Assembly: GCF_056746865.1 (NCBI RefSeq)
Contig: NZ_CM163382.1
Length of the DNA: 64,000 bases
Strand: one strand, 5' to 3'
Shown: positions 9,088 to 34,766 of the stretch, in pieces
How the letters are laid out: every line of letters starts with the position of its first letter
Position numbering within the stretch: the first letter of the stretch is position 1
The notes under the pieces: model-generated
Database searches by the model: none
The model's input: only the letters and a program-made list of their open reading frames with translations
Told to the model about the DNA's origin: nothing
Made by a program: the position numbers and the translations under genes

Positions 9088-9095
9088 TAGCATCA

Positions 9096-10498: not shown

Positions 10499-10579
10499 CC
10501 TAAGTCCTTGTTTATGCCATATAGTGTTCTATTTAATATTCTTGAAAAGAGTGTGCCTTAAAAAGCTACAGGCTAATTA

Positions 10580-11269: not shown

Positions 11270-11373
11270 AGTCCAAATGTACAACCAAGGTTTTATTCCA
11301 TCAAACGAAAATGGTTGTTGACTAAAAACAACCATAGTTTTAATCTTGATTCAAATTAACCACGGAGGTTGTT
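11270..11373. promoter_or_regulatory. OR-like operator/promoter region between repressor and cro-like gene
   Basis: Palindrome ATGGTTGTTGACTAAAAACAACCAT overlapping a rightward TTGACT -35; GGAGG RBS before cro-like ATG. Confidence 0.6.
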
Positions 11374-11604
11374 ATGAACCCAGCTATCAAAACAGCGATC
11401 AATATCGTTGGTTCACAAAAGAAACTGGGCGCTGCTTGCGAAGTTTCACAGCAGGCCGTCTATAAGTGGCTTCACAACAAAGCAAAGGTATCCCCTGAAC
11501 ATGTCGGCAGCATTGTTACGGCTACTGGTGGAGTAGTGAAGGCATACCAGATTCGCCCGGATCTTCCGAAGTTGTTTCCACACACCGAAAAGAACGCAGC
11601 TTAA
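11374..11604 (+). CDS. Cro/YdaS-like small DNA-binding regulator
   Basis: 76-aa product, divergently transcribed from repressor; resembles Rac YdaS-type cro analogues. Confidence 0.65.
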   Translation: MNPAIKTAINIVGSQKKLGAACEVSQQAVYKWLHNKAKVSPEHVGSIVTATGGVVKAYQIRPDLPKLFPHTEKNAA

Positions 11605-11673
11605 ATTTCCATTTCACGCTCTTTAACAATAAGCAATCAACTTAACAGTCAATTCAAACTAAAGGAGTCAATT

Positions 11674-12213
11674 ATGCAACCACTTCCATACCAACAGACT
11701 AGCGGATTTAGCCCGACTGCGGTGATAAATCGTTCTCAAACAAAACAGGTGCCAGGCCACGAAAAAATCCGTGATGCCGTCCGCGCCTGGTCGGCTGTAG
11801 ATAATCAGGATGTCGTTGCCACACTCATTGTGAATGAGTATCGGGAGCAGGGCGGCGGCACCATCGATTTCCCTGATGATGTCAGCCGTGCACGCCAGAA
11901 GCTGTTCCGCTTCCTCGATAACAAATTCGATTCTGAAAAATACCGAAATAACGTGCGTGAACTGACCCCGGCAATTCTGGCGGTACTACCGCTGGAATAT
12001 CGCGGTTACCTGGTTGAGCAGGATAGCTTCATGGCTAGGTTGGCTGAAATGGAAAAGGAACTCAGTGAGGCAAAACAGGCTGTCATTCTCAACGCACCAC
12101 GCCACCAGAAACTGAAGGAAATTAGTGAAGGTATTGTATCGATGTTTCGTGTGGACCCAGATCTGGCTGGTCCATTGATGGCGATGGTTACTACCATGCT
12201 GGGGGCGATATGA
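11674..12213 (+). CDS. YdaT-like protein (CII position)
   Basis: 179-aa ORF after cro-like gene; sequence pattern reminiscent of Rac YdaT family. Confidence 0.45.
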   Translation: MQPLPYQQTSGFSPTAVINRSQTKQVPGHEKIRDAVRAWSAVDNQDVVATLIVNEYREQGGGTIDFPDDVSRARQKLFRFLDNKFDSEKYRNNVRELTPAILAVLPLEYRGYLVEQDSFMARLAEMEKELSEAKQAVILNAPRHQKLKEISEGIVSMFRVDPDLAGPLMAMVTTMLGAI

Positions 12214-12300
12214 CAGGTTCAGAAATGGCGAAAGCCGGTCTGCTGGAACAGAACCGACTTTCAGGTGCAAATCGTAACACACTCATTGCGGGAGGAATTA

Positions 12301-13229
12301 TGGCAAACACTGCTGAGATATTCAATTTTCCAGTGCCGGATGCGGCACAAAAGGAGCCGCGCGTGGCAGATCTCGATGATGGTTATACGCGCATTGCAAA
12401 TGAGTTGCTGGAAGCTGTGATGCTGGCCGGATTAACACAGCACCAGCTTCTGGTCTTCCTGGCTGTCATGCGCAAAACATATGGCTTTAATAAAAAACTG
12501 GATTGGGTGAGCAACGAGCAACTTTCCGAATTGACCGGGATATTGCCGCACAAGTGTTCTGCTGCAAAAAGCGTTCTGGTAAAGCGTGGGATTCTTATTC
12601 AGAGCGGGCGGAATATCGGCATTAATAATGTGGTCAGTGAATGGTCAACATTACCCGAATCAGGTAAGAAAAATAAAGTTTACCTGAAAGAGGTAAATTT
12701 ACCTGAATCAGGTAAGAAAAGTTTACCCAAATCAGGTAAAGGCGTTTACCCGAATCAGGTAAACACAAAAGACAAACTAACAAAAGACAATATAAAACCT
12801 TTTTCGTCCGAGAATTCTGGCGAATCCTCTGACCAGCCAGAAAACGATCTTCCTGTGGTGAAACCGGATGCTGCAATTCAGAGCGGCAGCAAGTGGGGGA
12901 CAGCAGAAGACCTGACCGCCGCAGAGTGGATGTTTGACATGGTGAAGACTATCGCACCATCAGCCAGAAAACCGAATTTTGCTGGGTGGGCTAACGATAT
13001 CCGCCTGATGCGTGAACGTGACGGACGTAACCACCGCGACATGTGCGTGCTGTTCCGCTGGGCCTGCCAGGACAACTTCTGGTCCGGTAACGTGCTGAGT
13101 CCGGCCAAACTCCGCGACAAGTGGACCCAGCTCGAAATCAACCGGAACAAGCAACAGGCTGGCGTGACAGTCGGCAAACCAAAACTCGACCTGACAAACA
13201 CTGACTGGATTTACGGGGTGGATCTATGA
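12301..13229 (+). CDS. O: replication initiator O (divergent N-terminal DNA-binding domain, lambda-like C-terminal domain)
   Basis: Start at MANTAEIFNF preceded by GGGAGG; C-terminal half recognised as lambda O; contains iterons. Confidence 0.85.
12651..12763. repeat. ori iterons (5 copies of an 18-bp TTACC-N8-GGTAA repeat) inside O
   Basis: ttacccgaatcaggtaag, ttacctgaaagaggtaaa, ttacctgaatcaggtaag, ttacccaaatcaggtaaa, ttacccgaatcaggtaaa, followed by an A-rich stretch. Confidence 0.8.
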
Positions 13230-13927
13230 AAAACATCGCCGCACAGATGGTTAACTTTGACCGTGAGCAGATGCGTCGGATCGCCAACAACATGCCGGAA
13301 CAGTATGACGAAAAGCCACAGGTACAGCAGGTAGCGCAGATCATCAACGGTGTGTTCAGCCAGTTACTGGCAACTTTCCCGGCGAGCCTGGCTAATCGTG
13401 AGCAGAACGAACTGAACGAAATCCGCCGCCAGTGGGTTCTGGCTTTCCGGGAAAACGGGATCACCACGATGGAACAGGTTAACGCAGGAATGCGCGTAGC
13501 CCGTCGGCAGAATCGACCATTCCTGCCATCCCCCGGACAGTTTGTAGCCTGGTGCCGGGAAGAAGCATCCGTTATTGCCGGACTACCAAACACCAGCGAG
13601 CTGGTTGATATGGTTTACGAGTATTGCCGGAAGCGTGGCCTGTATCCGGATGCAGAGTCTTATCCGTGGAAATCAAACGCGCACTACTGGCTGGTTACCA
13701 ACCTGTATCAGAACATGCGGGCCAATGCGCTTACTGATGCGGAATTACGGCGCAAGGCTGCCGATGAACTGACTTGTATGACCGCGCGAATTAACCGTGG
13801 TGAGGCGATACCTGAACCAGTAAAACAACTTCCTGTCATGGGCGGTAGACCTCTAAATCGTGCACAGGCTCTGGCGAAGATCGCAGAAATCAAAGCGAAG
13901 TTCGGACTGAAAGGAGCAACTGTATGA
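13226..13927 (+). CDS. P: replication protein P (DnaB helicase loader)
   Basis: 233-aa product recognised as near-identical to lambda P. Confidence 0.95.
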   Translation: MKNIAAQMVNFDREQMRRIANNMPEQYDEKPQVQQVAQIINGVFSQLLATFPASLANREQNELNEIRRQWVLAFRENGITTMEQVNAGMRVARRQNRPFLPSPGQFVAWCREEASVIAGLPNTSELVDMVYEYCRKRGLYPDAESYPWKSNAHYWLVTNLYQNMRANALTDAELRRKAADELTCMTARINRGEAIPEPVKQLPVMGGRPLNRAQALAKIAEIKAKFGLKGATV

Positions 13928-14226
13928 CGGGCAAAGAGGCAATTATTCATTACCTGGGGACGCATAAGAGCTTCTGTGCGCAGGACGTTGCTGCGGTAAC
14001 AGGCGCAACAGTAACCAGTATAAATCAGGCTGCGGCTAAAATGGCACGGGCAGGAATCTTGGTCGTTGATGGTAAGGTCTGGCGAACGGTGTATTACCGG
14101 TTCGCTACCAGGGAAGAACGGGAAGGAAAGGTGAGCACGAATCTGATTTTCAAGGAGTGTCGCCAGAGTGCCGCGATGAAACGAGTGTTGGCAGTGTATG
14201 GAGATATGAACTTAAACTTGCTGTGA
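13924..14226 (+). CDS. ren: Ren exclusion protein
   Basis: MTGKEAIIHYLGTH... matches lambda Ren. Confidence 0.85.
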   Translation: MTGKEAIIHYLGTHKSFCAQDVAAVTGATVTSINQAAAKMARAGILVVDGKVWRTVYYRFATREEREGKVSTNLIFKECRQSAAMKRVLAVYGDMNLNLL

Positions 14227-14474
14227 CGGTTTTCATCGGTAACACACCATGTAATCTAGCAGTCAGCTTAGAAATAGGAGCGGCAGTTAAAGATTTTTCA
14301 GTTAGTAGAAAATTACTGTTATTGCAGGGATCTAATCACCGGAGAGTCGTTCCATTTGTCTTATGATTACCTGAAGTCCGTTAGTTCGTTGGTAATCACC
14401 GTTTTTGTTAGAGAAGTAAGCATCGCTGACAAAATATTCTCAACGATGCCTGCTTTATTGCTACTACAAATTAA

Positions 14475-15977
14475 TTAAATTGCATCTGCAAACTCTGGGG
14501 TTTTTCGCTCAGGTATAATTGATGAGTTGCTGTTGTCACTTTTTTTATTTTCATGATTACGAATAGCCAATGACTCATTAAAGTCTTTTGCGACTGCTGT
14601 CTCAATAAATTCAATTTCTGAATCAGAGTGTTTTTTAACAGCTTCTTTGATCTCATCCAGAGTAACATAGAAAAACTCTTTTCTACGATTTACAAGATTG
14701 ACTCTCTTTTTATCGAAGACATCATGTAGTTTTTTTTCTAATGATGGAGCGTCCTCCGAATAAATCATGGCATGTACATCAAAAATAAAAGGAACAGATG
14801 CATCACCGAGCTCATTTACACGGTCTTGCGGATCAAGACGTCGTGTCATGCCTATTTTATAAACATTCTCCCCAAAAGAACCTATGTTCGAAATAATATA
14901 AACATGACCTTGTTTGGTTTGTTGTGCCATGGATAATGCTCTTTGATGCTTTGATTCAGCCTGCGACAAACTCTGTTCTAGTTCGGCAATGCGATTTTCG
15001 AGGCGCTGCTTCATGTCACCAGTAACTTTTTCCATTTCCTTTCTTGCAGCTTCAATTGCTTTTTTATAACGGCGCTCTTCTGCCTCTGCGTCTTGCATGG
15101 CCTTTTCTATTTCTCGTTGTGCACGCTCCTCCTCTCTCATTTGTGCCCTTATTTCTGCCTGTTCTTCTTTTTCTTTCTGTTTTTGCTCACGATATTCATG
15201 GGTAAGCCACAATTCCTCAAGTTTTTTATTGAGGTATTTAGTGTTTATATATATGTGATTTTGCTCGTTTAGTTTATTTATGGCCTCAAATGCCTTTGTG
15301 ATGCGTTCTTCCATTTTAGTGATGTTTTTCCACGTGCAATTGCTAATTGCAGCATCACATTCATTATTAAATGCTCTAGTAGTTAGCCTGATATTTCTGT
15401 CTGTCATTTTTTTACCCTCTGCTCGAGAGCCTTCAACAGTCCATTGGGTTGTACAATATACTGCGCCAGAGTGGGTTTTATCCCGCAGCATTAATTTCTG
15501 TTCATCCCTGATGGATTTTATTTTGTTTTTAAATTGCTCTGAATCTTCAAAATTAAAATGAGGTTCGTAAAATCCTAGTTCGGCTAGCTCAACATCTTCT
15601 GAATAAATAGAAATTTGCCTTACTAGTTTATCATATATTTCTTTCTTCTCTTTATAAGTTCTTCTTAGCTCTTGGATTTGTTTATTGATACCATCCATTT
15701 TTTCAATGGTGTTTGTTAGTTCATTATTGGCATTTTCTTTTACTTTTAGGGATTCTTCTTTTATTATGGAGCATTCTTGCTCTGTTTTCTCAATAAGCTT
15801 CTTACATTCTTCTTCTACATTAAAATAATCTGCAAAGCGAGATTTGTATTCTTCATTTTTTTGATTGCTATCACTTAATTCTAATTGTATTTTTTTGATG
15901 CGTTTGATTGCAGCTATATAAAGAACAAGAACAACCAATAAAAATATGATTGCAAGTAATAGAGGAGTTTGAGTCAT
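14475..15977 (-). CDS. membrane-anchored coiled-coil protein with C-terminal T5orf172/GIY-YIG-like domain (candidate defence/exclusion gene)
   Basis: N-terminal hydrophobic helix, long K/E-rich coiled coil, C-terminal GHVYIISN...YKIGMTRRLDPQDRVNEL...VPF motif; very AT-rich; opposite strand to surrounding early genes. Confidence 0.75.
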   Translation of the reverse strand: MTQTPLLLAIIFLLVVLVLYIAAIKRIKKIQLELSDSNQKNEEYKSRFADYFNVEEECKKLIEKTEQECSIIKEESLKVKENANNELTNTIEKMDGINKQIQELRRTYKEKKEIYDKLVRQISIYSEDVELAELGFYEPHFNFEDSEQFKNKIKSIRDEQKLMLRDKTHSGAVYCTTQWTVEGSRAEGKKMTDRNIRLTTRAFNNECDAAISNCTWKNITKMEERITKAFEAINKLNEQNHIYINTKYLNKKLEELWLTHEYREQKQKEKEEQAEIRAQMREEERAQREIEKAMQDAEAEERRYKKAIEAARKEMEKVTGDMKQRLENRIAELEQSLSQAESKHQRALSMAQQTKQGHVYIISNIGSFGENVYKIGMTRRLDPQDRVNELGDASVPFIFDVHAMIYSEDAPSLEKKLHDVFDKKRVNLVNRRKEFFYVTLDEIKEAVKKHSDSEIEFIETAVAKDFNESLAIRNHENKKSDNSNSSIIPERKTPEFADAI

Positions 15978-16286
15978 TCGTGCTATTCCTTACGGACAAT
16001 TTAAGACGTTTTGTATTAAATCCTGTTCAATGTGTATGCGGGTGATTGCTACCGCTTACAATCTTCATAATTATCAGTTAGATAGACTCGCTAGTAAATA
16101 ATTTCATTTTTTGCAATATTCTTATTGAATATTTCAATTTATGAAATGAACTCTTTATCCTTTCAAGGTGAAAGGTTTCTTCTTCGGAAATATTTGCTCT
16201 CGTGTGACGTATAAAGACCTTTGATTTTCAAAAATCAGTAGGGAATAATATAGTTACTGTCGGCCTGAACACCCGGTGGTGGGGTT

Positions 16287-16370
16287 GCGCTAAACGGGGA
16301 CGTTTATGCGCACACACAATCCAAACTCTCATCTCCATTCACAGATGCAGAAATGCACCTACGATTTTTT
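16287..16370 (+). repeat. 84-bp direct repeat, copy 1
   Basis: gcgctaaacggggacgtttatgcgcaca...cgatttttt, about 93 percent identical to 18221-18304; begins with a hairpin and ends with a T-run. Confidence 0.85.
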
Positions 16371-16789
16371 ACATTCGGTGTTTTACTTCGACAGCCAGAA
16401 TTGGGAGTCTCTATTCGTCTGGCGGCTAAAGGTGATATGGAAATCGTTATGTTTTGGCCTGAGGTAGTTGTAACTGTTGTAGCAGCTATGGATGTGATCA
16501 TCATGGTGTCCATTTACTGGGGTTGACGACATGATTTATCCGGCGCTATATTCTGTGCGTTGCCGCAAAATCGGCACACGGGATTGGCGTCCCGGGATAC
16601 TACTCAACGCATACCGCGTTAAGCGGTTTTTTTGTGCGCTAAGCACGGCTATGCCCAAATTATGGTGGGCTGTGTGAGGGCTTCTTCGGAAGCGCCGGGT
16701 TTGAGTAGCCGGTTACGCCAACCTTACACAGTTCACCACCAGTCGATTGGCGTCGTTGGTGGTGATGGTTAACCTGATGAGGTGATACT

Positions 16790-17398
16790 ATGACTACTCA
16801 ATTAGCATTCCACAAAACGACGTTTACCCCGATTTGCCACAATAACAGAATTTGGCTTACTGCCACTGAAGTTGGTTTAGCACTGGAATATGCGGACGAT
16901 AAAGCAGTTCAGCGCATTTACTCTCGGCACTCAGATGAATTCACAGATATGATGACAAGGGTGGTCAAAGTGACCACCCCTCGTGGAATGCAGGAGTCTC
17001 GAGTATTTAGCCTTCGCGGAGCCCATTTGATCGCCATGTTTGCTCGTACTCCTGTGGCCAAAGAATTCCGCCGCTGGGTTCTGGATATTCTCGATCGAGA
17101 AGTTCAACAATCCCCAATCACAAAACAATTCACTGATAACGAACTTTGCACACTCGCCTGGTTATGGCGAGCAAGTGATACGATGTTAACCGCCTGCCAG
17201 AACGTTACGCCCCTTCTTCAGGTCGCAGAGCATCGCGAAGCAGGTAGATTCACTTCAATCGAACAAGAATATCCTCGGATACTCAACAGGGCGCGAGAAA
17301 TCCTTGCCAGAGAAACGGCGCATGTAAAATTCCAACCGTGGCAGGATGATAAGTGGAGTCGTGTGTTACCATATTTCCGTCAGAATCTGTTGCAATAA
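16790..17398 (+). CDS. Bro-N/antirepressor-like protein
   Basis: N-terminal pattern ...RIWLTATEVGLALEY...RWVLDIL resembles Bro-N/Ant-type phage domains. Confidence 0.55.
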   Translation: MTTQLAFHKTTFTPICHNNRIWLTATEVGLALEYADDKAVQRIYSRHSDEFTDMMTRVVKVTTPRGMQESRVFSLRGAHLIAMFARTPVAKEFRRWVLDILDREVQQSPITKQFTDNELCTLAWLWRASDTMLTACQNVTPLLQVAEHREAGRFTSIEQEYPRILNRAREILARETAHVKFQPWQDDKWSRVLPYFRQNLLQ

Positions 17399-17633
17399 AG
17401 TCACTAGTTAGAAATACTGCCAGCATTCTGCGATGACGGAAGTGCTGGCATTTTTTTTGGTAATGTGCGAGTCCATTTCATAAAATACGGGTACTGGAAC
17501 TGGACGATATAATCTAAAAGATACCATTATCAGTAGCATTAAAATCGCTATGTGCCGATACGGATATAAATTATATTGATTGTTCACATACCTTATTGGA
17601 TATTACTGAGGGGTGTTTATATAAGGTGTAACG

Positions 17634-18143
17634 ATGATGTGGAACTTTGACAGTGCCGACTTAAGTGCAATAGCAGCAGGCATTTCTGCGTTTGGCACAT
17701 TAGCCGCAGCGGGGTCGGCGCTTGCAAGTTGGTGCACGTCAAAAAAAGCGCTGCAGCTACAAAATAGAGTTTACCTTTATGAGTCTTTAAAGGCTTGCGC
17801 TGAGAGAGCCAATTCATCAGCTAAAGATAAGCGCGGATCTGAATGGAGCGTTAATGATGCAGCGGATATCATCAGGTGCCTAGTACGGGCGATGGAGCTC
17901 ATCAAGCAGGATAGCCAGCAGAAAGAAGGTAATCAGGCATTAATGTTGAAACAGTACTTTGTTAATCTGCTAATAATGGAACTGTACGAGGAAGTTCATA
18001 ACGGTGATGCGGCTGATTCTGTTTTTAAAAGTACGGAACCTACACAAGTACTTGATAACTTATGGAGCAAATGGCAGGAGGCTATAGCTTTTTTTGATAT
18101 TTGGAATTACCCAGTTGCGACTGAGGAAGACTTGGCAGACTAA
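17634..18143 (+). CDS. hypothetical protein with N-terminal hydrophobic segment
   Basis: 169-aa ORF within the repeat-flanked module. Confidence 0.5.
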   Translation: MMWNFDSADLSAIAAGISAFGTLAAAGSALASWCTSKKALQLQNRVYLYESLKACAERANSSAKDKRGSEWSVNDAADIIRCLVRAMELIKQDSQQKEGNQALMLKQYFVNLLIMELYEEVHNGDAADSVFKSTEPTQVLDNLWSKWQEAIAFFDIWNYPVATEEDLAD

Positions 18144-18963: not shown

Positions 18964-19246
18964 TTTGAGAAAAGCAGCGCGTGGTCGGGAATGCCAGGTA
19001 AGAATCCCTGGCGTATGTAATGGCAATTCTGAGACGTCTGTACTGGCACATATCCGGCTGGCTGGATTGTGCGGTACCGGTATCAAACCGCCAGACCTGA
19101 TTGCCACCATTGCATGTTCTGCCTGCCACGACGAAATCGACCGCCGCACGCATTTTGTTGACGCTGGATATGCAAAAGAATGCGCGCTGGAAGGTATGGC
19201 GAGAACGCAGGTTATCTGGCTGAAAGAGAGGGTAATTAAGGCGTGA
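18956..19246 (+). CDS. ybcO: YbcO-family nin-region protein
   Basis: Start at [14 protein letters not shown]; Cys-rich product recognised as DLP12 YbcO. Confidence 0.8.
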
Positions 19247-19605
19247 ATACTTACCACATCACACTACCCTGGCCTCCGAGCAATAATCGCTATTACCGCC
19301 ATAATCGCGGGCGCACGCACGTCAGCGCAGAGGGGCAGGCATACCGCGATAACGTCGCCCGAATCATTAAAAACGCAATGCTGGATATCGGCCTGGCTAT
19401 GCCTGTGAAAATCCGCATTGAGTGCCACATGCCGGATCGCCGTCGCCGTGACCTGGATAATCTGCAAAAAGCCGCTTTTGACGCACTCACTAAAGCAGGT
19501 TTCTGGCTGGATGATGCTCAGGTCGTTGATTACCGCGTTGTGAAGATGCCTGTTACCAAAGGTGGGAGGCTGGAACTGACCATCACCGAAATGGGGAATG
19601 AATGA
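19243..19605 (+). CDS. rusA: Holliday-junction resolvase RusA
   Basis: 120-aa product recognised as RusA. Confidence 0.95.
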
Positions 19606-19742
19606 TGTTTGAGTTTAATATGGCAGAACTTCTTCGCCACCGCTGGGGGCGTCTGCGCTTATATCGTTTCCCCGGCTCTGTTTTGACCGATTACCGAATA
19701 CTGAAGAATTACGCCAAAACACTGACAGGAGCAGGAGTATGA
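19602..19742 (+). CDS. ylcG: YlcG-family small protein
   Basis: 46-aa [21 protein letters not shown]... overlapping rusA stop. Confidence 0.6.
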
Positions 19743-19827
19743 AGTCAGAGATAACAATCAACTAATACTGTTTTGTTGATTTTTGCTTGTAATTGGCGTT
19801 CTGGTCTGAGTTTTGTGGAGTAAGTTG

Positions 19828-20211
19828 ATGCGTGATATTCAGATGGTTCTTGAGCGTTGGGGAGCGTGGGCGGCTAATAATCATGAAGATGTGACCTGGT
19901 CGTCCATTGCCGCCGGTTTTAAGGGATTAATTCCTTCAAAAGTAAAATCTCGCCCGCAATGTTGTGACGATGACGCGATGATCATTTGCGGGTGCATGGC
20001 CCGTCTGAAAAAGAACAACAGCGATTTGCACGATTTATTAGTAGATTATTATGTAGTCGGTATGACATTCATGTCACTGGCAGGTAAGCATTGCTGCTCT
20101 GATGGTTATATCGGGAAAAGGTTACAAAAGGCTGAGGGCATAATTGAAGGGATGTTAATGGCATTAGATATCCGGTTAGAGATGGATATCGTTGTTAATA
20201 ACTCTAATTAA
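19828..20211 (+). CDS. quuD: late-gene antiterminator Q
   Basis: Start at [18 protein letters not shown]; recognised as DLP12-type Q; followed by hairpin-rich qut/terminator region. Confidence 0.85.
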
Positions 20212-20227
20212 TATGCCAATTGTTTAC

Positions 20228-20263
20228 TAAAAATTATTAAAAATGGGGCGTTGAGACGCCCCC
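20228..20263 (-). terminator. candidate rho-independent terminator (minus strand)
   Basis: Stem GGGGCGT-loop-ACGCCCC with a T-rich tract on the minus strand. Confidence 0.35.
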
Positions 20264-20350
20264 AAAAATAAAGGGTAATATATAACAGAAGGTTTATATA
20301 GTTAGAAGCAAGGTTGTGCTTCTAAAGGAAGTGGCTTGAGGGAGCCACTT

Positions 20351-20390
20351 ATATGTTGGGGAGGCAACGCCTCCCGCAACATATCTTTTT
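20351..20390 (+). terminator. tR'-like terminator downstream of Q/pR' (possibly bidirectional with the porin gene)
   Basis: Near-perfect palindrome ATATGTTGGGGAGGCAACGCCTCCCGCAACATAT followed by CTTTTT. Confidence 0.55.
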
Positions 20391-20400
20391 CGTAATCAGA

Positions 20401-21483
20401 TTAGAACTGGTAAACCAGACCTACAGCAACGATGTCATCAGTATCAATACCAGCTGTTTTGGTAAACTTACTATCGTCAATTAAGTTGATTTTGTAATCA
20501 ACAAAAGTGGACATGTTTTTATTAAAGTAGTAAGTAGCACCGACATCGACATACTTGACTAAGTCTCGGTCACCATGAACACCAAGGTCTTTACCTTTTG
20601 ACTGAAGGTAAGCAACAGATGGGCGCAGACCGAAGTCAAACTGATATTGTGCTACTGCTTCAAAGTTTTGTGCTTTGTTTGCAATATGGTTATTACCAAA
20701 AACGGTCATATTCTGAGTTTCAGAATATGTGGTAGCCAGATAGATATTGTTCGCATCATATTTCAGGCCTGCAGCCCATACTTCCGCATTTTTGCCGGAG
20801 GCATTGAATTTGCTCTTACCATAGGCGACCTGACCGTCAGTGCGATCTGATTTAGCATAGGTTGCACCCACGCCGAATCCTTCATACTCATAAGTAGTGG
20901 AGAAACCGAAACCATCACCATTGGCTTCAGTTACGTCAGTGCGGTCATTTTTACCCTGATACTGAGCAGCAAAGTTCAGGCCATCGACCAGACCAAAGAA
21001 GTCGTTGTTACGATAAGTTGCAACACCAGTAGTGCGACCAGTCATGAACACATCTGTTTGGGTCCAGGTATCACCACCGAATTCTGGCAGGACGTCAGTC
21101 CACGCACCGATGTCGTATGCTACACCGTAGTTACGGCCGTAATCGATTGAGCCGTAATCACCAAATTTCAGGCCTGCAAATGCAAGACGGGTTTTGTCTT
21201 TGGAAGAACCTTGAGATTCAGCGCGGTTGCCTTTGAATTCATATTCCCACTGACCGAAACCAGTCAGTTGATCGTTGATTTGGGTTTCACCTTTGAAGCC
21301 AAGACGGGCATAAGTAGTATCACCATCATCTGCATCATTAGAGGAGAAGTAGTGCTTAGCATTAACTTTCCCGTACAGATCCAGCTTGTTACTGTCTTTA
21401 TTATAAATTTCAGCTGCCTGAGCAGACATCGCCATCAGTACTGATGCAGCTACAGCAGAAATTGCCACTGTTAATTTTTTCAT
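20401..21483 (-). CDS. nmpC: general outer-membrane porin (NmpC/OmpD-like), prophage cargo
   Basis: 360-aa product with signal peptide and C-terminal ...VGLVYQF porin ending; located between Q and lysis genes on opposite strand. Confidence 0.85.
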
Positions 21484-22056
21484 CGTGAGCCCTTTTTTTT
21501 GAACTATTATTAAAAAATGATGTCACTGCGCGATAAATATTCATCTAATCAATGTGATTATTTCAAGATGTAAGTTTTGGTTTCTCGTTTAATTTGTGAA
21601 GTAGATCTCTATTTTTATCTGAACTTTTTTCTATCGAATCCTATTCATGGCTCTTGGCTGAATAAAAATAAATCTATTAGCCAATTTATATTAATGGCTG
21701 TTATTTATAAGTGCTCTATAATTTGAAGGTTCAATTTAAATTGGCTAAAAATAACGCTGGAAATTATTTGTTGGTTATTTGTTGAGATTTGCTTATGTAT
21801 TTGTAGTGGTGTTTTCAATACTCGGTAGCATTCTCGCAAATATCATTTAGTGGTTTACGTACGTAAAAAATTGGTTATGCTGTTAAGAGTGGTTACTTCG
21901 TCACACAGCTTAAACCCGCCGTCGAGCGGGTTTTTCCATTTTTTGAGTCTCGATATTAGCTGATAACCCAATACCTGAGTTATTCACTGACTCCGAGTCT
22001 GTTACGTTTCGTAGTATTCCCTCAATTTACACCCGCTTTGTCTGCGAGGTGGGGTT

Positions 22057-22272
22057 ATGAAATCCATGGATAAGTTAACAACGGGTGTCGCCTATGGCAC
22101 CTCAGCAGGTAGTGCCGGGTACTGGTTTTTACAGCTGCTCGATAAAGTCACGCCCTCACAGTGGGCAGCAATAGGTGTGCTGGGTAGCCTGGTATTTGGC
22201 CTGCTGACGTACCTGACAAACCTTTATTTCAAGATTAAAGAAGATAAGCGCAAGGCTGCGAGAGGTGAATAA
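22057..22272 (+). CDS. essD: pinholin (phage 21 S-type)
   Basis: 71-aa two-TM product recognised as S21/EssD. Confidence 0.85.
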
Positions 22273-22769
22273 TGCCTCCATCATTACGAAAAGCTGTTGC
22301 TGCTGCTATTGGTGGCGGGGCTATTGCTATAGCATCTGTGTTAATCACTGGCCCAAGTGGTAACGATGGTCTGGAAGGTGTGAGACATAATCCTTACAAA
22401 GACATAGTTGGTGTATGGACTGTATGTTACGGGCATACAGGAAAAGACATCATTCCCGGTAAAACGTATACCGAAGCAGAGTGCAAAGCCCTCCTGAATA
22501 AAGACCTTGCCACTGTCGCCAGACAAATTAACCGGTACATCAAAGTCGATATACCGGAAACAACGCGCGGCGCTCTTTACTCGTTCGTCTACAACGTGGG
22601 TGCTGGCAATTTCAGAACATCGACGCTTCTTCGCAAAATAAACCAGGGTGATATTAAAGGCGCATGTGATCAGCTACGGCGCTGGACATACGCTGGCGGT
22701 AATCAATGGAAAGGACTGATGACTCGCCGTGAGATTGAGCGTGAAGTCTGTTTGTGGGGGAAACAATGA
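22272..22769 (+). CDS. rrrD: SAR endolysin (lysozyme)
   Basis: 165-aa product with N-terminal signal-anchor-release segment; recognised as R21/RrrD. Confidence 0.9.
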
Positions 22770-23233
22770 GCAGAGTAACCGCGATTATCTCCGCTCTGGT
22801 TATCTGCATCATCGTCTGCCTGTCATGGGCTGTTAATCATTACCGTGATAATGCAATCGCCTACAAAGAACAGCGCGATAACAAGGCCAGTGAACTGGAG
22901 AAGGCGAACGCCACCATTACTGACATGCAGCAGCGCCAGCGTGATGCTGATGCACTCGATGATAAATACACGAAGGAGTTAGCTGATGCGAAAGCTGAAA
23001 ATGATGCTCTTCGGCGCAAGCTTGATAATGGTGGTCGGGTGCTCGTCAAAGGAAAATGCCCTGTGCCATCCTCAGCCGAAACCTCCAGCGCCTCCGGCAT
23101 GGGCAATGATGCCACCGTCGAACTCTCTCCAGTTGCTGGACGAAACGTTCTCGGTATCCGGGACGGAATTATCCGCGACCAAACAGCATTGAGAACGCTT
23201 CAGGAATACATCAGGACGCAATGCCTTCGATGA
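22766..23233 (+). CDS. rzpD: spanin inner-membrane subunit Rz
   Basis: Start at [18 protein letters not shown]-terminal TM then coiled coil. Confidence 0.8.
22986..23192 (+). CDS. rzoD: spanin outer-membrane lipoprotein Rz1, embedded in Rz in +1 frame
   Basis: ORF inside Rz with lipobox-like VVGC and Pro-rich segment [11 protein letters not shown]. Confidence 0.65.
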
Positions 23234-23724
23234 TAGCGATAATTTTACTCATCATCCTTCACATCTGGCTCTGTAGACAGGGTGGTGCTCACTTCTGGAG
23301 TGAATCCAGATTAAACATCTCATTGCTGATGCTTGATATTGAGCATTTTGCGCGCGGTAAGGGGCTGCGTTGAGATAAGAGCCAGTCATTACAAATACCA
23401 GGATTTAGCCTCGCATTCGCGGGGCTTTTTATTGCCATTACAAAAGCCACTTCCTACAGAGTGGCTTTGATAATGGCTTATACCCTACACGGGATAACTT
23501 AACTGATATCCCTTTTAAAGGATAAAGGTATTCAAGCCTGACACATCATGCGCTGTATCGTCGCCGTATTCCCGTATTAACAGAGACCGTAGCCCGACGG
23601 GGAACTCCTTCTGCGCGAGTGTGCGGGAATAATCAATAACGATGCACACCGGGGTTACCGGGTACACATATTTCATCATGCCAGCGAGTCCGGTTCTGGC
23701 ACGGAAGAAACCGGACGTTATGAT

Positions 23725-24135
23725 TTAGTGCGGAAATATTTGTGTAGTGTTCTGAATGTTCTCAGTAAAGAGTAATGAATTATCAAAGGTATAGTAATAC
23801 CTTTTGTTTTCGTGGATATTTGTAATCCATCTGAAAACCCCTGCTGTAGCAAGATTTTTCCTGTATTCGTAAAATGATAACTCTCCTGATTTGAATCCTT
23901 TTAAGGTGGCTTCTATAAGGCATTTATTTTTTGAAAATCTTACATTTACAACCTTACTCTGTCCTTTTATTAAAACCGTATTATCGTTTTCAAGAACAAG
24001 ATGAATATTCTCTGTGGCTAAATAGTAAATGTAATGTGAGACATTGTGACGTTTTAGTTCAGAATAAAACCAGTGATAGTTTAAATTATTTCGCACTTTA
24101 TCGAATATTTGTTTAAAAATGGCAACCTGAGCCAT
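23725..24135 (-). CDS. ybcV: YbcV-family protein
   Basis: Start at [14 protein letters not shown]; recognised as DLP12 YbcV. Confidence 0.75.
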
Positions 24136-24192
24136 TGTAGTACCTTCCATGTGATATGAAGGTACCTAGTCTGCACGATTATCTAAATTGCT

Positions 24193-24426
24193 TCAATCTG
24201 GTCTGACCTGCTTTCTGAGCAATTCAGTAATGTCACTCTTTTCTTTGTTTGCTTCAGGCGAAACTCTTTTTTCTGAGCACAGTCTTCGGCGGCAGGCTTC
24301 AATGACCCAGGCTGAGAAATTCCCGGACCCTTTTTGATCAAGAGCAATGTTAATTTGTTCAATCATTTGGTTAGGAAAGCGGATGTTGCGGGTTGTTGTT
24401 CTGCGGGTTCTGTTCTTCGTTGACAT
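24193..24426 (-). CDS. small basic protein, possible ribbon-helix-helix DNA-binding protein
   Basis: 77-aa ORF with Arg-rich N-terminus. Confidence 0.4.
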   Translation of the reverse strand: MSTKNRTRRTTTRNIRFPNQMIEQINIALDQKGSGNFSAWVIEACRRRLCSEKRVSPEANKEKSDITELLRKQVRPD

Positions 24427-24589
24427 GAGGTTGTCCCGTATTCAGTGTCGCTGATTTGTATTGTCTGAAGTTGTTTTTACGTTAAGTTGATGCAGATCAA
24501 TTAATATGATACCTGCGTCATAATTGATTATTTGACGTGGTTTGATGGCGTAGATGCACGTTGTGACATGCAGATGATAATTATTATCA

Positions 24590-24810
24590 TTTTGCGGGTC
24601 CTTTCCGGCGATCCGACAGGTTACGGGGCGGCGACCTCGCGGGTTTTCGCTATTTATGAAAATTTTCCGGTTTAAGGCGTTTCCGTTCTTCTTCGTCGTA
24701 ACTTAATGTTTTTATTTAAAATACCCCCTGAAAAGAAAGGAAACGACAGGTGCTGAAAACGAACTTTTGGGCCTCTGTCGTTTCCTTTCTCTGTTTTTGG
24801 CCGTGGAATG
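24590..24810 (+). other. cos site (cosQ-cosN-cosB); 12-nt cohesive end GGGCGGCGACCT at 24626-24637
   Basis: Sequence ...ttacg|GGGCGGCGACCTCGCGGGTTTTCGCTATTTATGAAAATTTTCCGG... recognised as the lambda cohesive-end region immediately upstream of Nu1. Confidence 0.9.
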
Positions 24811-24814
24811 AACA

Positions 24815-25334
24815 ATGGAAGTCAACAAAAAGCAGCTGGCTGACATTTTCGGTGCGAGTATCCGTACCATTCAGAACTGGCAGGAACAGGGAATGCCCGT
24901 TCTGCGAGGCGGTGGCAAGGGTAATGAGGTGCTTTATGACTCTGCCGCCGTTATAAGATGGTATGCCGAAAGGGATGCTGAAATTGAGAACGAAAAGCTG
25001 CGCCGGGAAGTTGAAGAACTGCGGCAGGCCAGCGAGACAGATCTCCAGCCAGGGACTATTGAGTACGAACGCCATCGACTTACGCGTGCGCAGGCCGACG
25101 CACAGGAGCTGAAAAATGCCAGAGACTCCGCTGAAGTGGTGGAAACCGCATTCTGTACTTTCGTGCTGTCGCGGATCGCAGGTGAAATTGCCAGTATTCT
25201 CGACGGGATCCCCCTGTCGGTGCAGCGGCGTTTTCCGGAACTGGAAAACCGACATGTTGATTTCCTGAAACGGGATATCATCAAAGCCATGAACAAAGCA
25301 GCCGCGCTGGATGAACTGATACCGGGGTTGCTGA

Positions 25335-25360
<26 letters not shown>
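24815..25360 (+). CDS. Nu1: terminase small subunit
   Basis: 181-aa product recognised as lambda Nu1. Confidence 0.95.
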
Positions 25361-29041
<3,681 letters not shown>

Positions 29042-29061
<20 letters not shown>

Positions 29062-30373
29062 TCTCCCGCATATTGCCAGCATGGCCTTTAATGAGCCGCT
29101 GATGCTTGAACCCGCCTATGCGCGGGTTTTCTTTTGTGCGCTTGCAGGCCAGCTTGGGATCAGCCGCCTGACGGATGCAGTATCCGGCGACAGCCTGACT
29201 GCCGGAGAGGCACCCGCGGCGCTGGCGTTATCCGGTGATGATGACGGACCACGACAGGCCCGCAGTTATCAGGTCATGAACGGCATCGCCGTGCTGCCGG
29301 TGTCCGGTACGCTGGTCAGCCGGACGCGGGCGCTGCAGCCGTATTCGGGAATGACCGGTTACAATGGCATTATCGCCCGTCTGCAACAGGCTGCCAGCGA
29401 TCCGATGGTGGACGGCATTCTGCTCGATATGGACACACCGGGCGGGATGGTGGCGGGAGCATTTGACTGTGCTGACATCATCGCCCGTGTGCGAGACATA
29501 AAACCGGTATGGGCGCTGGCCAACGACATGAACTGCAGTGCAGGTCAGCTGCTTGCCAGCGCCGCCTCCCGGCGTCTGGTCACGCAGACTGCCCGGACAG
29601 GCTCCATCGGCGTCATGATGGCTCACAGTAATTACGGTGCTGCCCTGGAGAAACAGGGCGTGGAAATCACGCTGATTTACAGCGGCAGCCATAAGGTGGA
29701 TGGCAATCCCTACAGCCATCTTCCGGATGACGTCCGGGAGACACTGCAGTCCCGGATGGACGCAACCCGCCAGATGTTTGCGCAGAAGGTGTCGGCATAT
29801 ACCGGCCTGTCTGTGCAGGCTGTGCTGGATACCGAGGCTGCAGTGTACAGCGGTCAGGAGGCCATTGATGCCGGACTGGCTGATGAACTTGTTAACAGCA
29901 CCGATGCGATCACCGTCATGCGTGATGCACTGGATGCACGTAAATCCCGTCTCTCAGGAGGGCGAATGACCAAAGAGACTCAATCAACAACTGTTTCAGC
30001 CACTGCTTCGCAGGCTGACATCACCACCGTGGAGCCTGCGAAGGAGGGCGAAAACGCCAGCGCGGCGCAGCCGGATGTGAACGCACAGATCACCGCAGCG
30101 GTTGCGGCAGAAAACAGCCGCATTATGGGGATCCTCAACTGTGAGGAGGCTCACGGACGCGAAGAACAGGCGCGCGTTCTGGCAGAAACCCCCGGAATGA
30201 CCGTGGAAACGGCCCGCCGCATTCTGGCCGCAGCACCACAGAGTGCACAGGCGCGCAGTGACACTGCGCTGGATCGTCTGATGCAGGGTGCACCGGCACC
30301 GCTGGCTGCAGGTAACCTGGCATCTGATACCAATAAAGAATTACTTAATACACCTGAAGCTTTACCGGTATAA
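29042..30373 (+). CDS. C: head maturation protease C (scaffold Nu3 nested in frame in 3' part)
   Basis: GTG start at 29042 gives VTAELRNLPHIASMAFNEP... matching lambda gpC; ORF track start 28928 is an upstream extension. Confidence 0.9.
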
Positions 30374-30382
30374 GAGGCAGTT

Positions 30383-30715
30383 ATGGCGACAAAAGAAGAG
30401 TTTAACCATTACCAGCCGCTGGGTAACAGTGATCCGGCTCATACAGCAATTGCGCCTGGCGGATTGAGTGCGAAAACGCCTGCAATGACCCCACTGATGC
30501 TGGATGGCACTACCCGTAAGCTGGTTGTGTGGGATGGCACCACCGACGGTGCAGCCGTTGGCATTCTGGCGGTTGCTGCTGACCAGACCAGCACCACACT
30601 GACGTTCTACAAGTCCGGCTCGTTCCGTTATGAGGATGTGCTCTGGCCGGAGGCTGCCAGCGACGAGACGAAAAAACGGACCGCGTTTGCCGGAACGGCA
30701 ATCAGCATCGTTTAA
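30383..30715 (+). CDS. D: head decoration protein D
   Basis: 110-aa product recognised as lambda gpD. Confidence 0.95.
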
Positions 30716-30770
30716 TCTTCCCCTTCATCAACAAAGGCCGCCTGTGCGGCTTTTTTTATGGAAATAATTT

Positions 30771-31796
30771 ATGTCTGTATATACAACTGCAGAATTACTG
30801 GCATCGACCCAGCATCACTTTAAGTTCGATCCGCTGTTTCTGCGCCTGTTTTTCCGTGAAACCTATCCTTTCACCACGGAGAAAGTCTATCTCTCACAAA
30901 TTCCGGGACTGGTAAACATGGCGCTGTACGTTTCGCCGATTGTTTCCGGTGAGGTTATCCGATCCCGTGGCGGCTCCACCTCTGAATTTACGCCGGGTTA
31001 TGTCAAACCCAAGCATGAGGTGAATCCGCAGATGACCCTGCGTCGCCTGCCGGATGAAGAACCGCAGAACCTGGCTGACCCGGCTTACCGTCGTCGCCGT
31101 ATTATTCGGCAGAATATGCTGGATGAAAATCTGGCGATTGCCCAGGTCGAAGAGATGCAGGCAGTTTCTGCCGTGCTTAAGGGCAAATACACCATGACCG
31201 GTGAAGCCTTCGATCCGGTTGAGGTGGATATGGGCCGCAGTGAGGCGAATAACATCACGCAGTCCGGCGGCACGGAGTGGAGCAAGCGTGACAAGTCCAC
31301 GTATGATCCGACCGACGATATCGAAGCCTACGCGCTGAACGCCAGCGGAGTGGTGAATATCATCGTGTTTGATCCGAAAGGCTGGGCGCTGTTCCGTTCC
31401 TTCAAAGCCGTCAGGGAGAAGCTGGATACTCGTCGCGGCTCTCATTCCGAGCTGGAGACAGCGGTGAAAGACCTGGGCAAAGCGGTGTCCTACAAGGGGA
31501 TGTATGGCGATGTGGCCATCGTCGTGTATTCCGGACAGTACGTGGAAAACGGCGTCAAAAAGAACTTCCTGCCGGACAACACGATGGTGCTGGGGAACAC
31601 TCAGGCACGCGGTCTGCGCACCTATGGCTGCATTCAGGATGCGGACGCACAGCGCGAAGGCATTAACTCCTCTGCCCGTTACCCGAAAAACTGGGTGACC
31701 ACCGGCGATCCGGCGCGTGAGTTCACCATGATTCAGTCAGCACCGCTGATGCTGCTGGCTGACCCTGATGAGTTCGTGTCCGTACAACTGGCGTAA
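30771..31796 (+). CDS. E: major capsid protein E
   Basis: 341-aa product recognised as lambda gpE. Confidence 0.95.
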   Translation: MSVYTTAELLASTQHHFKFDPLFLRLFFRETYPFTTEKVYLSQIPGLVNMALYVSPIVSGEVIRSRGGSTSEFTPGYVKPKHEVNPQMTLRRLPDEEPQNLADPAYRRRRIIRQNMLDENLAIAQVEEMQAVSAVLKGKYTMTGEAFDPVEVDMGRSEANNITQSGGTEWSKRDKSTYDPTDDIEAYALNASGVVNIIVFDPKGWALFRSFKAVREKLDTRRGSHSELETAVKDLGKAVSYKGMYGDVAIVVYSGQYVENGVKKNFLPDNTMVLGNTQARGLRTYGCIQDADAQREGINSSARYPKNWVTTGDPAREFTMIQSAPLMLLADPDEFVSVQLA

Positions 31797-31837
31797 TCGT
31801 GGCCCTTCGGGGCCATTTTCTCTATGTGGAGGAGTCC

Positions 31838-32233
31838 ATGACGAAAGGTGAACTGATTGTCCGTCTCCGGTCGCTGGGTGAGCAACTGAACCGTGATGTC
31901 AGCCTGACGGGGACGAAAGAAGAACTGGCGCTCCGTGTGGCAGAGCTGGAAGAGGAGCTTGATGACACGGATGACGCTGCCGGTCAGGATACCCCTCTCA
32001 GACCGGAAAATGCGCTGACCGGACATGAAAATGAGGTGGTATCAGCGCAGCCGGATACCATGATTGATACGGCTGCTCTGGTCACGGTCGTGGCACTGGT
32101 GACGCTGCATACTGATGCACTTCACGCCACGCGGGATGAACCTGTGGCATTTGTGCTGCCGGGAACGGCGTTTCGTGTCTCTGCCGGTGTGGCAGCCGAA
32201 ATGACAGAACGTGGCCTGGCCAGAATGCAATAA
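31838..32233 (+). CDS. FI: DNA-packaging protein FI
   Basis: Start at MTKGELIVRLRSLGEQ; recognised as lambda FI. Confidence 0.9.
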   Translation: MTKGELIVRLRSLGEQLNRDVSLTGTKEELALRVAELEEELDDTDDAAGQDTPLRPENALTGHENEVVSAQPDTMIDTAALVTVVALVTLHTDALHATRDEPVAFVLPGTAFRVSAGVAAEMTERGLARMQ

Positions 32234-32244
32234 CGGGAGGCGCT

Positions 32245-32598
32245 GTGGCTGATTTCGATAACCTGTTCGATGCTGCCATTGCCCGCGCCGATGAAACGAT
32301 ACGCGGGTACATGGGAACGTCAGCCACCATGACATCCGGTGAGCAGTCCGGCGCAGTAATACGTGGTGTTTTTGATGACCCTGAAAATATCAGCTATGCC
32401 GGACAGGGCGTACGCGTTGAAGGCTCCAGCCCGTCCCTGTTTGTCCGGACTGATGATGTGCGGCAGCTGCGGCGCGGCGACACGCTGACCATCGGTGAGG
32501 AAAACTTCTGGATAGACCGGATTTCGCCGGATGATGGTGGAAGCTGTCATCTCTGGCTTGGGCGGGGCGTACCGCCTGCCGTTAACCGTCGCCGCTGA
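32245..32598 (+). CDS. FII: head completion protein FII
   Basis: 117-aa product recognised as lambda FII. Confidence 0.95.
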   Translation: MADFDNLFDAAIARADETIRGYMGTSATMTSGEQSGAVIRGVFDDPENISYAGQGVRVEGSSPSLFVRTDDVRQLRRGDTLTIGEENFWIDRISPDDGGSCHLWLGRGVPPAVNRRR

Positions 32599-32609
32599 AA
32601 GGGGGATGT

Positions 32610-33188
32610 ATGGCCATAAAAGGTCTTGAGCAGGCCGTTGAAAACCTCAGCCGTATCAGCAAAACGGCGGTGCCTGGTGCCGCCGCAATGGCCATTAACC
32701 GCGTTGCTTCATCCGCGATATCGCAGTCGGCGTCACAGGTTGCCCGTGAGACAATGGTACGCCGGAAACTGGTAAAGGAAAGGGCCAGGCTGAAAAGGGC
32801 CACGGTCAAAAATCCGCAGGCCAGAATCAGGGTTAACCGGGGGGATTTGCCCGTAATAAAGCTGGGTAACGCGCGGATTGTCCTGTCCCGACGCAGGCGT
32901 CGTAAAAAGGGGCAGCGTTCAGCCCTGAAAGGTGGCGGCAGCGTGCTTGTGGTGGGAAACCGTCGTATTCCCGGCGCGTTTATTCAGCAACTGAAAAATG
33001 GCCGGTGGCATGTCATGCAGCGTGTGGCCGGGAAAAACCGTTACCCCATTGATGTGGTGAAAATCCCGATGGCGGTGCCGCTTACCACGGCGTTTAAACA
33101 GAATATTGAACGGATACGGCGTGAACGTCTTCCGAAAGAGCTGGGCTATGCGCTGCAGCATCAACTGAGAATGGTAATAAAGCGATGA
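32610..33188 (+). CDS. Z: tail completion protein Z
   Basis: 192-aa product recognised as lambda gpZ. Confidence 0.95.
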   Translation: MAIKGLEQAVENLSRISKTAVPGAAAMAINRVASSAISQSASQVARETMVRRKLVKERARLKRATVKNPQARIRVNRGDLPVIKLGNARIVLSRRRRRKKGQRSALKGGGSVLVVGNRRIPGAFIQQLKNGRWHVMQRVAGKNRYPIDVVKIPMAVPLTTAFKQNIERIRRERLPKELGYALQHQLRMVIKR

Positions 33189-33580
33189 AACATACTGAAC
33201 TCCGTGCAGCCGTACTGGATGCACTGGAGAAGCATGACACCGGGGCGACGCTTTTTGATGGTCGCCCCGCTGTTTTTGATGAGGCGGATTTTCCGGCAAT
33301 TGCCGTTTATCTCATCGGCGCTGAATACACAGGCGAAGAGCTGGACAGTGATACCTGGCAGGCGGAGCTGCATATTGAAGTTTTCCTGCCTGCTCAGGTG
33401 CCGGATTCAGAGCTGGATTCGTGGATGGAGTCCCGGATTTATCCGGTGATGAGCGATGTCCCGGCACTGTCAGATTTGATCACCAGTATGGTGGCCAGTG
33501 GCTATGACTACCGGCGCGACGATGATGCGGGCCTGTGGAGTTCAGCCGATCTGACTTATGTCATTACCTATGAAATGTGA
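33185..33580 (+). CDS. U: tail terminator protein U
   Basis: 131-aa product recognised as lambda gpU. Confidence 0.95.
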
Positions 33581-33587
33581 GGACGAT

Positions 33588-34328
33588 ATGCCTGTACCAA
33601 ATCCAGTAATGCCGGTGAAAGGGGCCGGGACCACACTGTGGGTTTATAAGGGGAGCGGTGACCCTTATGCGAACCCGCTTTCAGACGTTGACTGGTCGCG
33701 TCTGGCAAAAGTTAAAGACCTGACGCCCGGCGAACTGACCGCTGAGTCCTATGACGACAGCTATCTCGATGATGAAGATGCAGACTGGACTGCGACCGGG
33801 CAGGGGCAGAAATCTGCCGGAGATACCAGCTTCACGCTGGCTTGGATGCCCGGAGAGCAGGGGCAGCAGGCGCTGCTGGCGTGGTTTAATGAAGGTGATA
33901 CCCGTGCCTATAAAATCCGCTTCCCGAACGGCACGGTCGATGTGTTCCGTGGCTGGGTCAGCAGTATCGGTAAGGCGGTGACGGCGAAGGAAGTGATTAC
34001 CCGCACGGTGAAGGTCACCAATGTGGGACGTCCGTCGATGGCAGAAGATCGCAGCACGGTGACGGCGGCCACCGGCATGACGGTAACGCCAGCCAGTGCT
34101 TCCGTAGTGAAAGGGCAGAGCACCACGCTGACCGTGGCCTTCCAGCCGGAAGGGGCAACCGACAAGAGCTTCCGTGCGGTGTCTTCGGATAAAACAAAAG
34201 CCACCGTGTCGGTCAGTGGTATGACCATCACCGTGAACGGCGTTGCTGCAGGCAAGGTCAACATTCCGGTTGTATCTGGTAATGGTGAGTTTGCTGCGGT
34301 TGCAGAAATCACCGTCACCGCCAGTTAA
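33588..34328 (+). CDS. V: major tail tube protein V
   Basis: Start at [15 protein letters not shown]; recognised as lambda gpV. Confidence 0.95.
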
Positions 34329-34343
34329 TCCGGAGAGTCAGCG

Positions 34344-34766
34344 ATGTTCCTGAAAACAGAATCATTTGAACATAACGGTGTGACCGTCACGCTTTCTGAA
34401 CTGTCAGCCCTGCAGCGTATTGAGCATCTCGCCCTGATGAAACGGCAGGCAGAACAGGCGGAGTCAGACAGCAACCGGAAGTTTACTGTGGAAGACGCCA
34501 TCAGAACCGGCGCGTTTCTGGTGGCGATGTCCCTGTGGCATAACCATCCGCAGAAGACAAAGCTGCCTTCCATGAATGAAGCCGTTAAACAGATTGAGCA
34601 GGAAGTGCTTACCACCTGGCCCACAGAGGCAATTTCTCATGCTGAAAACGTGGTGTACCGGCTGTCCGGTATGTCTGAGTTTGTGGTGAATGATGCTCCT
34701 GAACAGGCAGAGGACGCCGGGCCTGCAGAGCCTGTTTCTGCGGGAAAGTGTTCGACGGTGAGCTGA
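34344..34766 (+). CDS. G: tail assembly chaperone G
   Basis: 140-aa product recognised as lambda gpG; slippery GGGAAAG at 34742-34748. Confidence 0.95.
   Translation: MFLKTESFEHNGVTVTLSELSALQRIEHLALMKRQAEQAESDSNRKFTVEDAIRTGAFLVAMSLWHNHPQKTKLPSMNEAVKQIEQEVLTTWPTEAISHAENVVYRLSGMSEFVVNDAPEQAEDAGPAEPVSAGKCSTVS

Follow-up and report, generated by a model that had tools for sequence, protein, structure and literature searches.

The region from position 22057 to 23233 on the plus strand of the window (the whole 64,000-nucleotide stretch of DNA that was analysed) holds four intact and overlapping lysis genes, S, R, Rz and Rz1, and very probably forms the lysis cassette within the late genes of a complete lambdoid prophage inserted at argU, one that would act by the phage 21 pathway of pinholin, SAR endolysin and spanins. 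The cassette type is already known, being the conventional and well-studied lambda-like prophage lysis kit of E. coli, and this textbook set of pinholin, SAR endolysin and spanin genes, borne by a common E. coli prophage, has little significance beyond its correct annotation. The cassette is itself evidently mosaic, with a recombination breakpoint near 23013 inside Rz: S is exactly that of DLP12 and R is of the 21/DLP12 type, and the C-terminus of Rz together with its cognate Rz1 is of the HK620/PS119 type. It is a clean natural case of recombination within Rz in which the Rz C-terminus and its interaction partner Rz1 have stayed together.

Gene layout and the identity of S and R

The four genes are arranged as follows.

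22057 to 22272, plus strand: S, 71 aa, class II pinholin/antipinholin gene (PF04971, E 2e-35)
22272 to 22769, plus strand: R, 165 aa, SAR endolysin, a T4-lysozyme-type muramidase (PF00959 Phage_lysozyme, E 2.3e-48)
22766 to 23233, plus strand: Rz, 155 aa counted from ATG, i-spanin, the inner-membrane subunit (PF03245, E 3.8e-29; phrog_13, E 1.2e-74)
22986 to 23192, plus strand: Rz1, 68 aa, o-spanin lipoprotein encoded inside Rz (PF06085, E 3.8e-21; phrog_3198, E 3.8e-26)

An earlier note on this DNA had placed an S/R/Rz/Rz1 lysis module at these positions, and the four ORFs, their coordinates and their Pfam families all bear this out. Each of the four matches the expected Pfam family far beyond the curated cut-off, and the PHROGs assignments agree with those of Pfam. 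The genes are joined by overlaps suited to translational coupling, in which TAATG is common to the stop of S and the start of R, and ATGA to the stop of R and the start of Rz. This four-gene pattern is not one of chance ORFs. For the start of Rz, the ATG at 22766 was preferred to a GTG at 22754, which was rejected on the strength of homology to the Rz proteins of lambda, HK620 and PS119 and of the RefSeq annotation. The gene anatomy, the motifs described below and the near-identity to experimentally characterised proteins are what the analysis shows directly; the reference loci used for comparison were those of phage 21 (OL657228), lambda, K-12 DLP12 and 434B (OL657227).

The S protein is 100% identical to EssD of DLP12 and to S of 434B, and shares 61 of 71 residues (86%, E 2e-47) with S of phage 21 (S21). 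Its match to the family 'Bacteriophage P21 holin S' (PF04971) scores 121 bits against a cut-off of 26. The N-terminus, MKSMDK, is the same as in S21 and contains both Met codons of the dual-start motif, so that Met1 is predicted to start a 71-aa antiholin (S71) and Met4, at 22066, a 68-aa pinholin (S68). Dual-start products are annotated for the homologous gene in the phage 21 and 434 records, which label the homologous genes of the cassette as antiholin, class II holin, SAR endolysin, i-spanin and o-spanin. Of the two TMDs, the first is weakly hydrophobic and SAR-like (KD 0.38, 60% G/A/S/T) and the second is hydrophobic (KD 1.5); they are followed by a basic C-terminal tail of 13 residues. 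Family membership, a length of about 70 aa with two TMDs, a weak TMD1, a charged tail and a dual start are the features by which a phage 21-type pinholin is recognised, and S, which has all of them, can be assigned to this type. By its likeness to phage 21 S, it would be expected to form small holes that do not allow the passage of a folded cytoplasmic endolysin.

The R protein is 92.7% identical to R21 (PDB 3HDE/3HDF; E 2.7e-103 to 3HDE) and 93.9% identical to RrrD (PDB 4ZPU; E 3.8e-104), and its residues 1 to 37 are identical to those of both. The N-terminus consists of MPPSLRK followed by a 20-residue Gly/Ala-rich SAR segment (65% G/A/S/T), and the lysozyme triad is present as E35-X8-D44-X5-T50, which has the form of the SAR endolysin motif E-X8-D/C-X5-T (PMC9239132). 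With a T4-lysozyme-type domain and its triad, a basic N-terminus and a weakly hydrophobic TMD, R can be classed as a SAR endolysin. Sec export, inactive tethering to the membrane and release upon depolarisation are established for R21, according to work cited in PMC9239132, and at 93% identity to R21 the same is probable for R. Twelve positions differ between R and R21, and three of these (38 to 40, SYI to RHN) lie between the catalytic residues E35 and D44; the same R is nonetheless widespread.

The assignment of S to the phage 21/DLP12-type pinholins and of R to the SAR endolysins of that type, both proposed in the earlier note, is upheld by these comparisons, as is its exclusion of lambda S and R. 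BLASTP gave no alignment at all between S and lambda S, and the best match of R to lambda R reached only E = 0.77, so that a lambda-type S/R pair was rejected. Lambda S (107 aa), a class I holin that forms large holes, and lambda R, a cytoplasmic transglycosylase, thus have no sequence relation to their counterparts here. What is shared with lambda is the order of the cassette, the embedded Rz1, the N-terminal half of Rz (about 88% DNA identity) and the largely lambda-like character of the prophage.

Spanins and the breakpoint within Rz

The Rz protein carries an N-terminal TMD (a hydrophobic segment with KD 2.36), and its match to phrog_13 spans the full length. The Rz1 gene begins 220 nt into Rz, occupies the interval from 0.47 to 0.91 of its length and stops before the Rz stop; as had been claimed, it is embedded in the +1 frame, (22986-22766) mod 3 being 1. 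A Shine-Dalgarno sequence, AAGGAG, lies 7 nt upstream of its start. The protein has a VVGC lipobox with Cys19, a Ser at +2, which is an outer-membrane sorting residue, and a mature form of 50 aa that includes 8 Pro. Cys98 and Cys153 of Rz align with C99 and C152 of lambda Rz, and Cys27 of Rz1 aligns with C29 of lambda Rz1; periplasmic spanin cysteines are required for intermolecular disulfides (PMC6139136). Together, an Rz-family i-spanin, an embedded lipoprotein o-spanin and the cysteines identify Rz and Rz1 as a probable two-component embedded spanin.

Embedded genes are readily missed by annotation pipelines, which is a known weakness. The RefSeq/PGAP record of strain SCU-313, whose genome is 100% identical, annotates the cassette as essD, rrrD and 'lysis protein' and leaves Rz1 out; the gene is also unannotated in several phage records, namely those of Kati, HK620 and PS119. 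Rz1 deserves to be added to the RefSeq annotation of the identical genomes.

The spanins of lambda, phage 21 and DLP12 are almost alike (Rz of 153 aa, Rz1 of 60 aa), and therefore an embedded Rz1 cannot separate a '21-type' from a 'lambda-type' cassette; its use in the earlier note as a mark that distinguishes phage 21 from lambda fails for this reason. The spanins of the window differ from all three, as Rz has only 61% protein identity to Rz of phage 21, lambda and DLP12, and Rz1 has only 48-50% to Rz1 of phage 21 and about 50% to that of lambda and DLP12. When the distal 77 residues of Rz were searched by tblastn, matches of 94-100% were found in the E. coli phages Kati, Ayreon and HK620 and in the Salmonella P22-like phages PS119, ST104, SE1 and SPN9CC. 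Along Rz1, 66 or 67 of the 68 residues match those of HK620, PS119 and Kati, and spanins of the HK620, PS119 and ST104 type have the same lengths as those found here (Rz of 155 aa, Rz1 of 68 aa). The N-terminal half of Rz is conserved across all alleles compared, and the DNA identity of Rz, given as a fraction, is distributed along the gene as follows.

HK620: first 250 nt, 0.92; the rest (distal 218 nt), 0.98
PS119: first 250 nt, 0.83; the rest (distal 218 nt), 0.95
Lambda: first 250 nt, 0.88; the rest, 0.53

The sliding DNA identity to phage 21 and DLP12 remains at about 0.9 until about 23010 and then falls to about 0.5, and the BLASTN alignments to lambda, phage 21 and DLP12 all end at 23013. 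Given this drop, a purely 21/DLP12-type cassette was rejected for the distal part of Rz and for Rz1, which on these alignments constitute a third allele, of the HK620/PS119 type and neither that of lambda nor that of phage 21. The claim that the whole module is of the 21/DLP12 type accordingly stands for S and R and has to be given up for the C-terminal half of Rz and for Rz1. The o-spanin families of Kongari et al. 2018 place Rz1 in the same way. In their classification the Rz proteins of lambda, phage 21 and the HK620 type all fall in a single i-spanin family, 'Lambda', whereas the o-spanins are split into a 'Lambda' family that includes phage 21 and an 'HK620' family that includes HK620, SE1, ST104 and mEp460 (PMC6139136). 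Rz1 falls outside the o-spanin family 'Lambda', to which the phage 21/lambda/DLP12 allele belongs, and matches the family 'HK620'.

The breakpoint lies just past the start codon of Rz1, and the interacting C-terminal half of Rz and the mature Rz1 would therefore have been exchanged as one unit. In HK620 this allele stands behind lambda-type S and R, and in PS119 it is paired with that phage's own gp13 and gp19. Its position behind a lambda-type S/R in HK620 shows that the spanin module is portable.

Prophage context, transcription and proposed role

The tRNA-Arg(UCU) gene argU, at 3835-3911, is the integration site of DLP12. The 3' half of argU recurs as a 47-bp direct repeat, at 3867-3913 and 50407-50453, which represents attL and attR; the element so delimited is about 46.6 kb long and contains appY (48031-48780) and ompT (49030-49983). 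The gene set of this element is apparently complete, comprising integrase, recombination and replication genes, Q, the genes from terminase to tail fibre/J, and the att repeats. By these features the element is to be regarded as a full-length lambdoid prophage, the counterpart of cryptic DLP12 at the same argU site, and the window thus presents a full-length relative of that remnant. The head and tail block from Nu1 to J (24626-42628) is 96.6% identical to positions 1-18002 of lambda; to phage 21, the identity of the head genes is only 65-69%. This bears out the modular mosaicism ascribed to this phage in the earlier note. The surviving pieces of DLP12 are colinear with the prophage at 95.5-99.6% identity, and identity is lower (83-92%) over the lysis region and just downstream. 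Taken with the breakpoint in Rz, the alignments place the mosaicism of the prophage within the lysis cassette itself.

Other genes of the prophage match models of anti-phage defence. A 500-aa DUF4041/T5orf172 protein encoded at 14475-15977 on the minus strand matches the PD-Lambda-1 model (E 1.9e-198), and its gene, a moron, has ren on one side and the nin region on the other. At 9096-10498, also on the minus strand, a gene pair encoding a 310-aa protein with no Pfam match and a 157-aa DUF6932 protein matches the PADLOC candidate system PDC-M63 B/A (E 4e-42 and 7e-43); the pair adjoins the cI repressor gene, the position held by rexAB in lambda.

The cassette is flanked by the following features.

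19828 to 20211, plus strand: Q-type late antiterminator, a quuD homologue (phrog_79 'anti-termination protein Q-like', E 5.7e-54)
20401 to 21483, minus strand: intact porin gene of the nmpC/lc type, 360 aa, between Q and S (PF00267, E 1.9e-151)
21912 to 21933, plus strand: terminator-like GC hairpin with a T-run, found by consensus scan, 124 nt upstream of S
23407 to 23426, plus strand: terminator-like hairpin, found by consensus scan, downstream of the cassette

With DLP12 (essD-rrrD-rzpD/rzoD) the locus shares the argU site, the order of Q, antisense porin, S, R and Rz/Rz1, the sequence of S and of the region upstream of it, and, at about 88-90% identity, the N-terminal half of Rz; R is the 93.9% identical protein described above. 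The two differ in the C-terminal half of Rz and the Rz1 allele, and whereas DLP12 is a 21-kb remnant with borD downstream and a porin gene disrupted by IS5, the prophage here is complete, has an intact porin and lacks borD. Phage 21, in which the S21-R21-Rz-Rz1 cassette is the paradigm, shares with this locus the dual start of S, the SAR domain and the catalytic triad of R, the overlaps at the gene junctions and an Rz1 embedded in the +1 frame, but the sequence upstream is unrelated, with tRNA genes in place of the porin, and the C-terminal module of the spanins differs. A bor gene, present downstream of the cassette in lambda, phage 21, 434 and DLP12, is absent here. The porin gene is disrupted by IS5 in 434B as in K-12 DLP12, and IS5 is also found at this gene in some genomes that are otherwise identical to the window. 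In the 434B isolate (OL657227) the Q-porin(IS5)-S region, annotated as '434 nonhomology', is identical to that of K-12 DLP12 and was apparently gained by recombination with the cryptic prophage of the host.

The Q gene is annotated as quuD in a 100%-identical genome, and the Q region has 97.8% DNA identity to the nin-Q region of K-12 DLP12. Transcription of the cassette is presumably Q-dependent, by analogy with DLP12 literature cited in PMC7918800, and a path from Q to S past the antisense porin is assumed from DLP12, 434 and PA-2-type phages. The 157 bp upstream of S (21900-22056) are 100% identical to the sequence upstream of essD in DLP12, and the hairpin at 21912-21933 within them is a candidate site of Q antitermination. 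A consensus scan for the late promoter yielded 7 promoter-like hits, fewer than the 11.5 found on average in shuffled sequence, and could not place it; a Q-dependent terminator was likewise not located with confidence. The record of phage epsilon34 lists a hairpin homologous to that at 23407-23426 as a rho-independent terminator. A search of 19000-25500 and 23150-23750 against Rfam found no family at the gathering score, and the best matches (STnc560 at 19.9 bits against 55, and mir-458) were weak and chance-like.

The mechanism of lysis by pinholins, SAR endolysins and spanins is said to have been addressed in primary work by Sun et al. 2009. By homology, the timing of lysis, pinhole formation, SAR release and spanin action in this cassette would take the following course. 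The 68-aa pinholin started at Met4 of S would build up in the inner membrane until, at a set time, its weakly hydrophobic TMD1 exits the bilayer, and oligomers of TMD2 would then form nanometre-scale pinholes through which the proton-motive force collapses; the 71-aa form, with one extra Lys, would delay this triggering. R would meanwhile be exported by Sec and kept inactive by its N-terminal SAR domain, and depolarisation would free it into the periplasm, where it would refold around E35/D44/T50 and degrade the peptidoglycan as a muramidase. Rz, anchored in the inner membrane, and Rz1, a lipoprotein of the outer membrane, would be joined through their C-terminal regions, with intermolecular disulfides to stabilise the link, and once the wall is degraded the Rz-Rz1 complex would disrupt the outer membrane. 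This mechanism is described in PMC9239132 and PMC6139136, which cite Park et al. 2007 and Xu et al. 2004 among the primary work.

The window is part of an E. coli chromosome and has 100% matches in many complete genomes; the full cassette with the next 170 bp is present, at a coverage of at least 80%, in over a fifth of complete E. coli genomes (1181 of 5426). It also occurs at 94-96% DNA identity in the isolated phages Kati, Ayreon, PhiR70_1 and vB_EcoS-569R4. That a cassette so common in E. coli is kept mainly for a sub-lytic role of benefit to the host, in peptidoglycan turnover, biofilm formation or the control of outer-membrane vesicles, and not for phage release, is unlikely. Such a role would accord with the complete identity of S and its upstream 157 bp to DLP12, as S-R-Rz/Rz1 of DLP12 is reported to act in cell-wall maintenance, biofilm and OMV production and to be controlled by Q, RpoE and Hha, according to PMC7918800 and papers that it cites. 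The cassette lies, however, in an apparently complete prophage with both att repeats, which makes phage release the simplest primary role; any role for the host would come on top of phage release and not in its place.

It is highly improbable that the cassette has fallen silent or into decay and no longer brings about lysis, as its location at the site of a cryptic prophage and the lack of a PGAP annotation for Rz1 might suggest: all four ORFs are of full length, every diagnostic motif is intact, free-living phages carry the same cassette, and the missing annotation reflects the pipeline weakness noted above. The idea that the breakpoint inside Rz has left spanins from another lineage mismatched to S and R, and so defective or altered in function, can be set aside almost entirely, since the interacting Rz C-terminal half and mature Rz1 were inherited together as in HK620 and PS119, HK620 combines the same allele with lambda-type S/R, all alleles share a conserved N-terminal half of Rz, and spanins act regardless of the type of holin and endolysin (PMC6139136). 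A functional cassette serving phage release is thus the reading preferred here.

A conserved island downstream of Rz

Directly after Rz lies a further element whose membership of the cassette is uncertain.

23221 to 23373, plus strand: 50-aa ORF forming a 153-bp conserved island (phrog_11822, unknown function, E 1.8e-36)

The ORF overlaps the stop of Rz by 13 nt. The island follows Rz directly in 44 phages, HK620 among them. These phages differ in their Rz alleles, and S/R of both the lambda type and the 21 type occur among them. Of the 153 columns of the island 12 are variable, compared with 30 of 60 in the upstream flank and 62 of 80 in the downstream flank. A coding test, of low power as it draws on these 12 columns, gave no codon-position signature (6, 2 and 4 at the three codon positions), and nonsynonymous differences outnumbered synonymous ones; within that low power it gives no support for a 50-aa protein under purifying selection. 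A database search for distant homologues of the ORF returned only close relatives, almost all of them labelled E. coli. Since there is neither a codon-position bias nor a distant homologue, the island may be a DNA or RNA element rather than a gene.

There is a slim chance that the island is a fifth component, so far unrecognised, of the lysis cassettes of lambdoid and P22-like phages. If so, it could be a small membrane protein that modulates lysis, or else an RNA or DNA element, such as a transcript end or a recombination 'boundary', that promotes the exchange of lysis modules. The island corresponds to gene 65 of Sf6 and gene 67 of epsilon34, is unannotated in HK620, and is mislabelled as 'Rz2 o-spanin' in HF4s.
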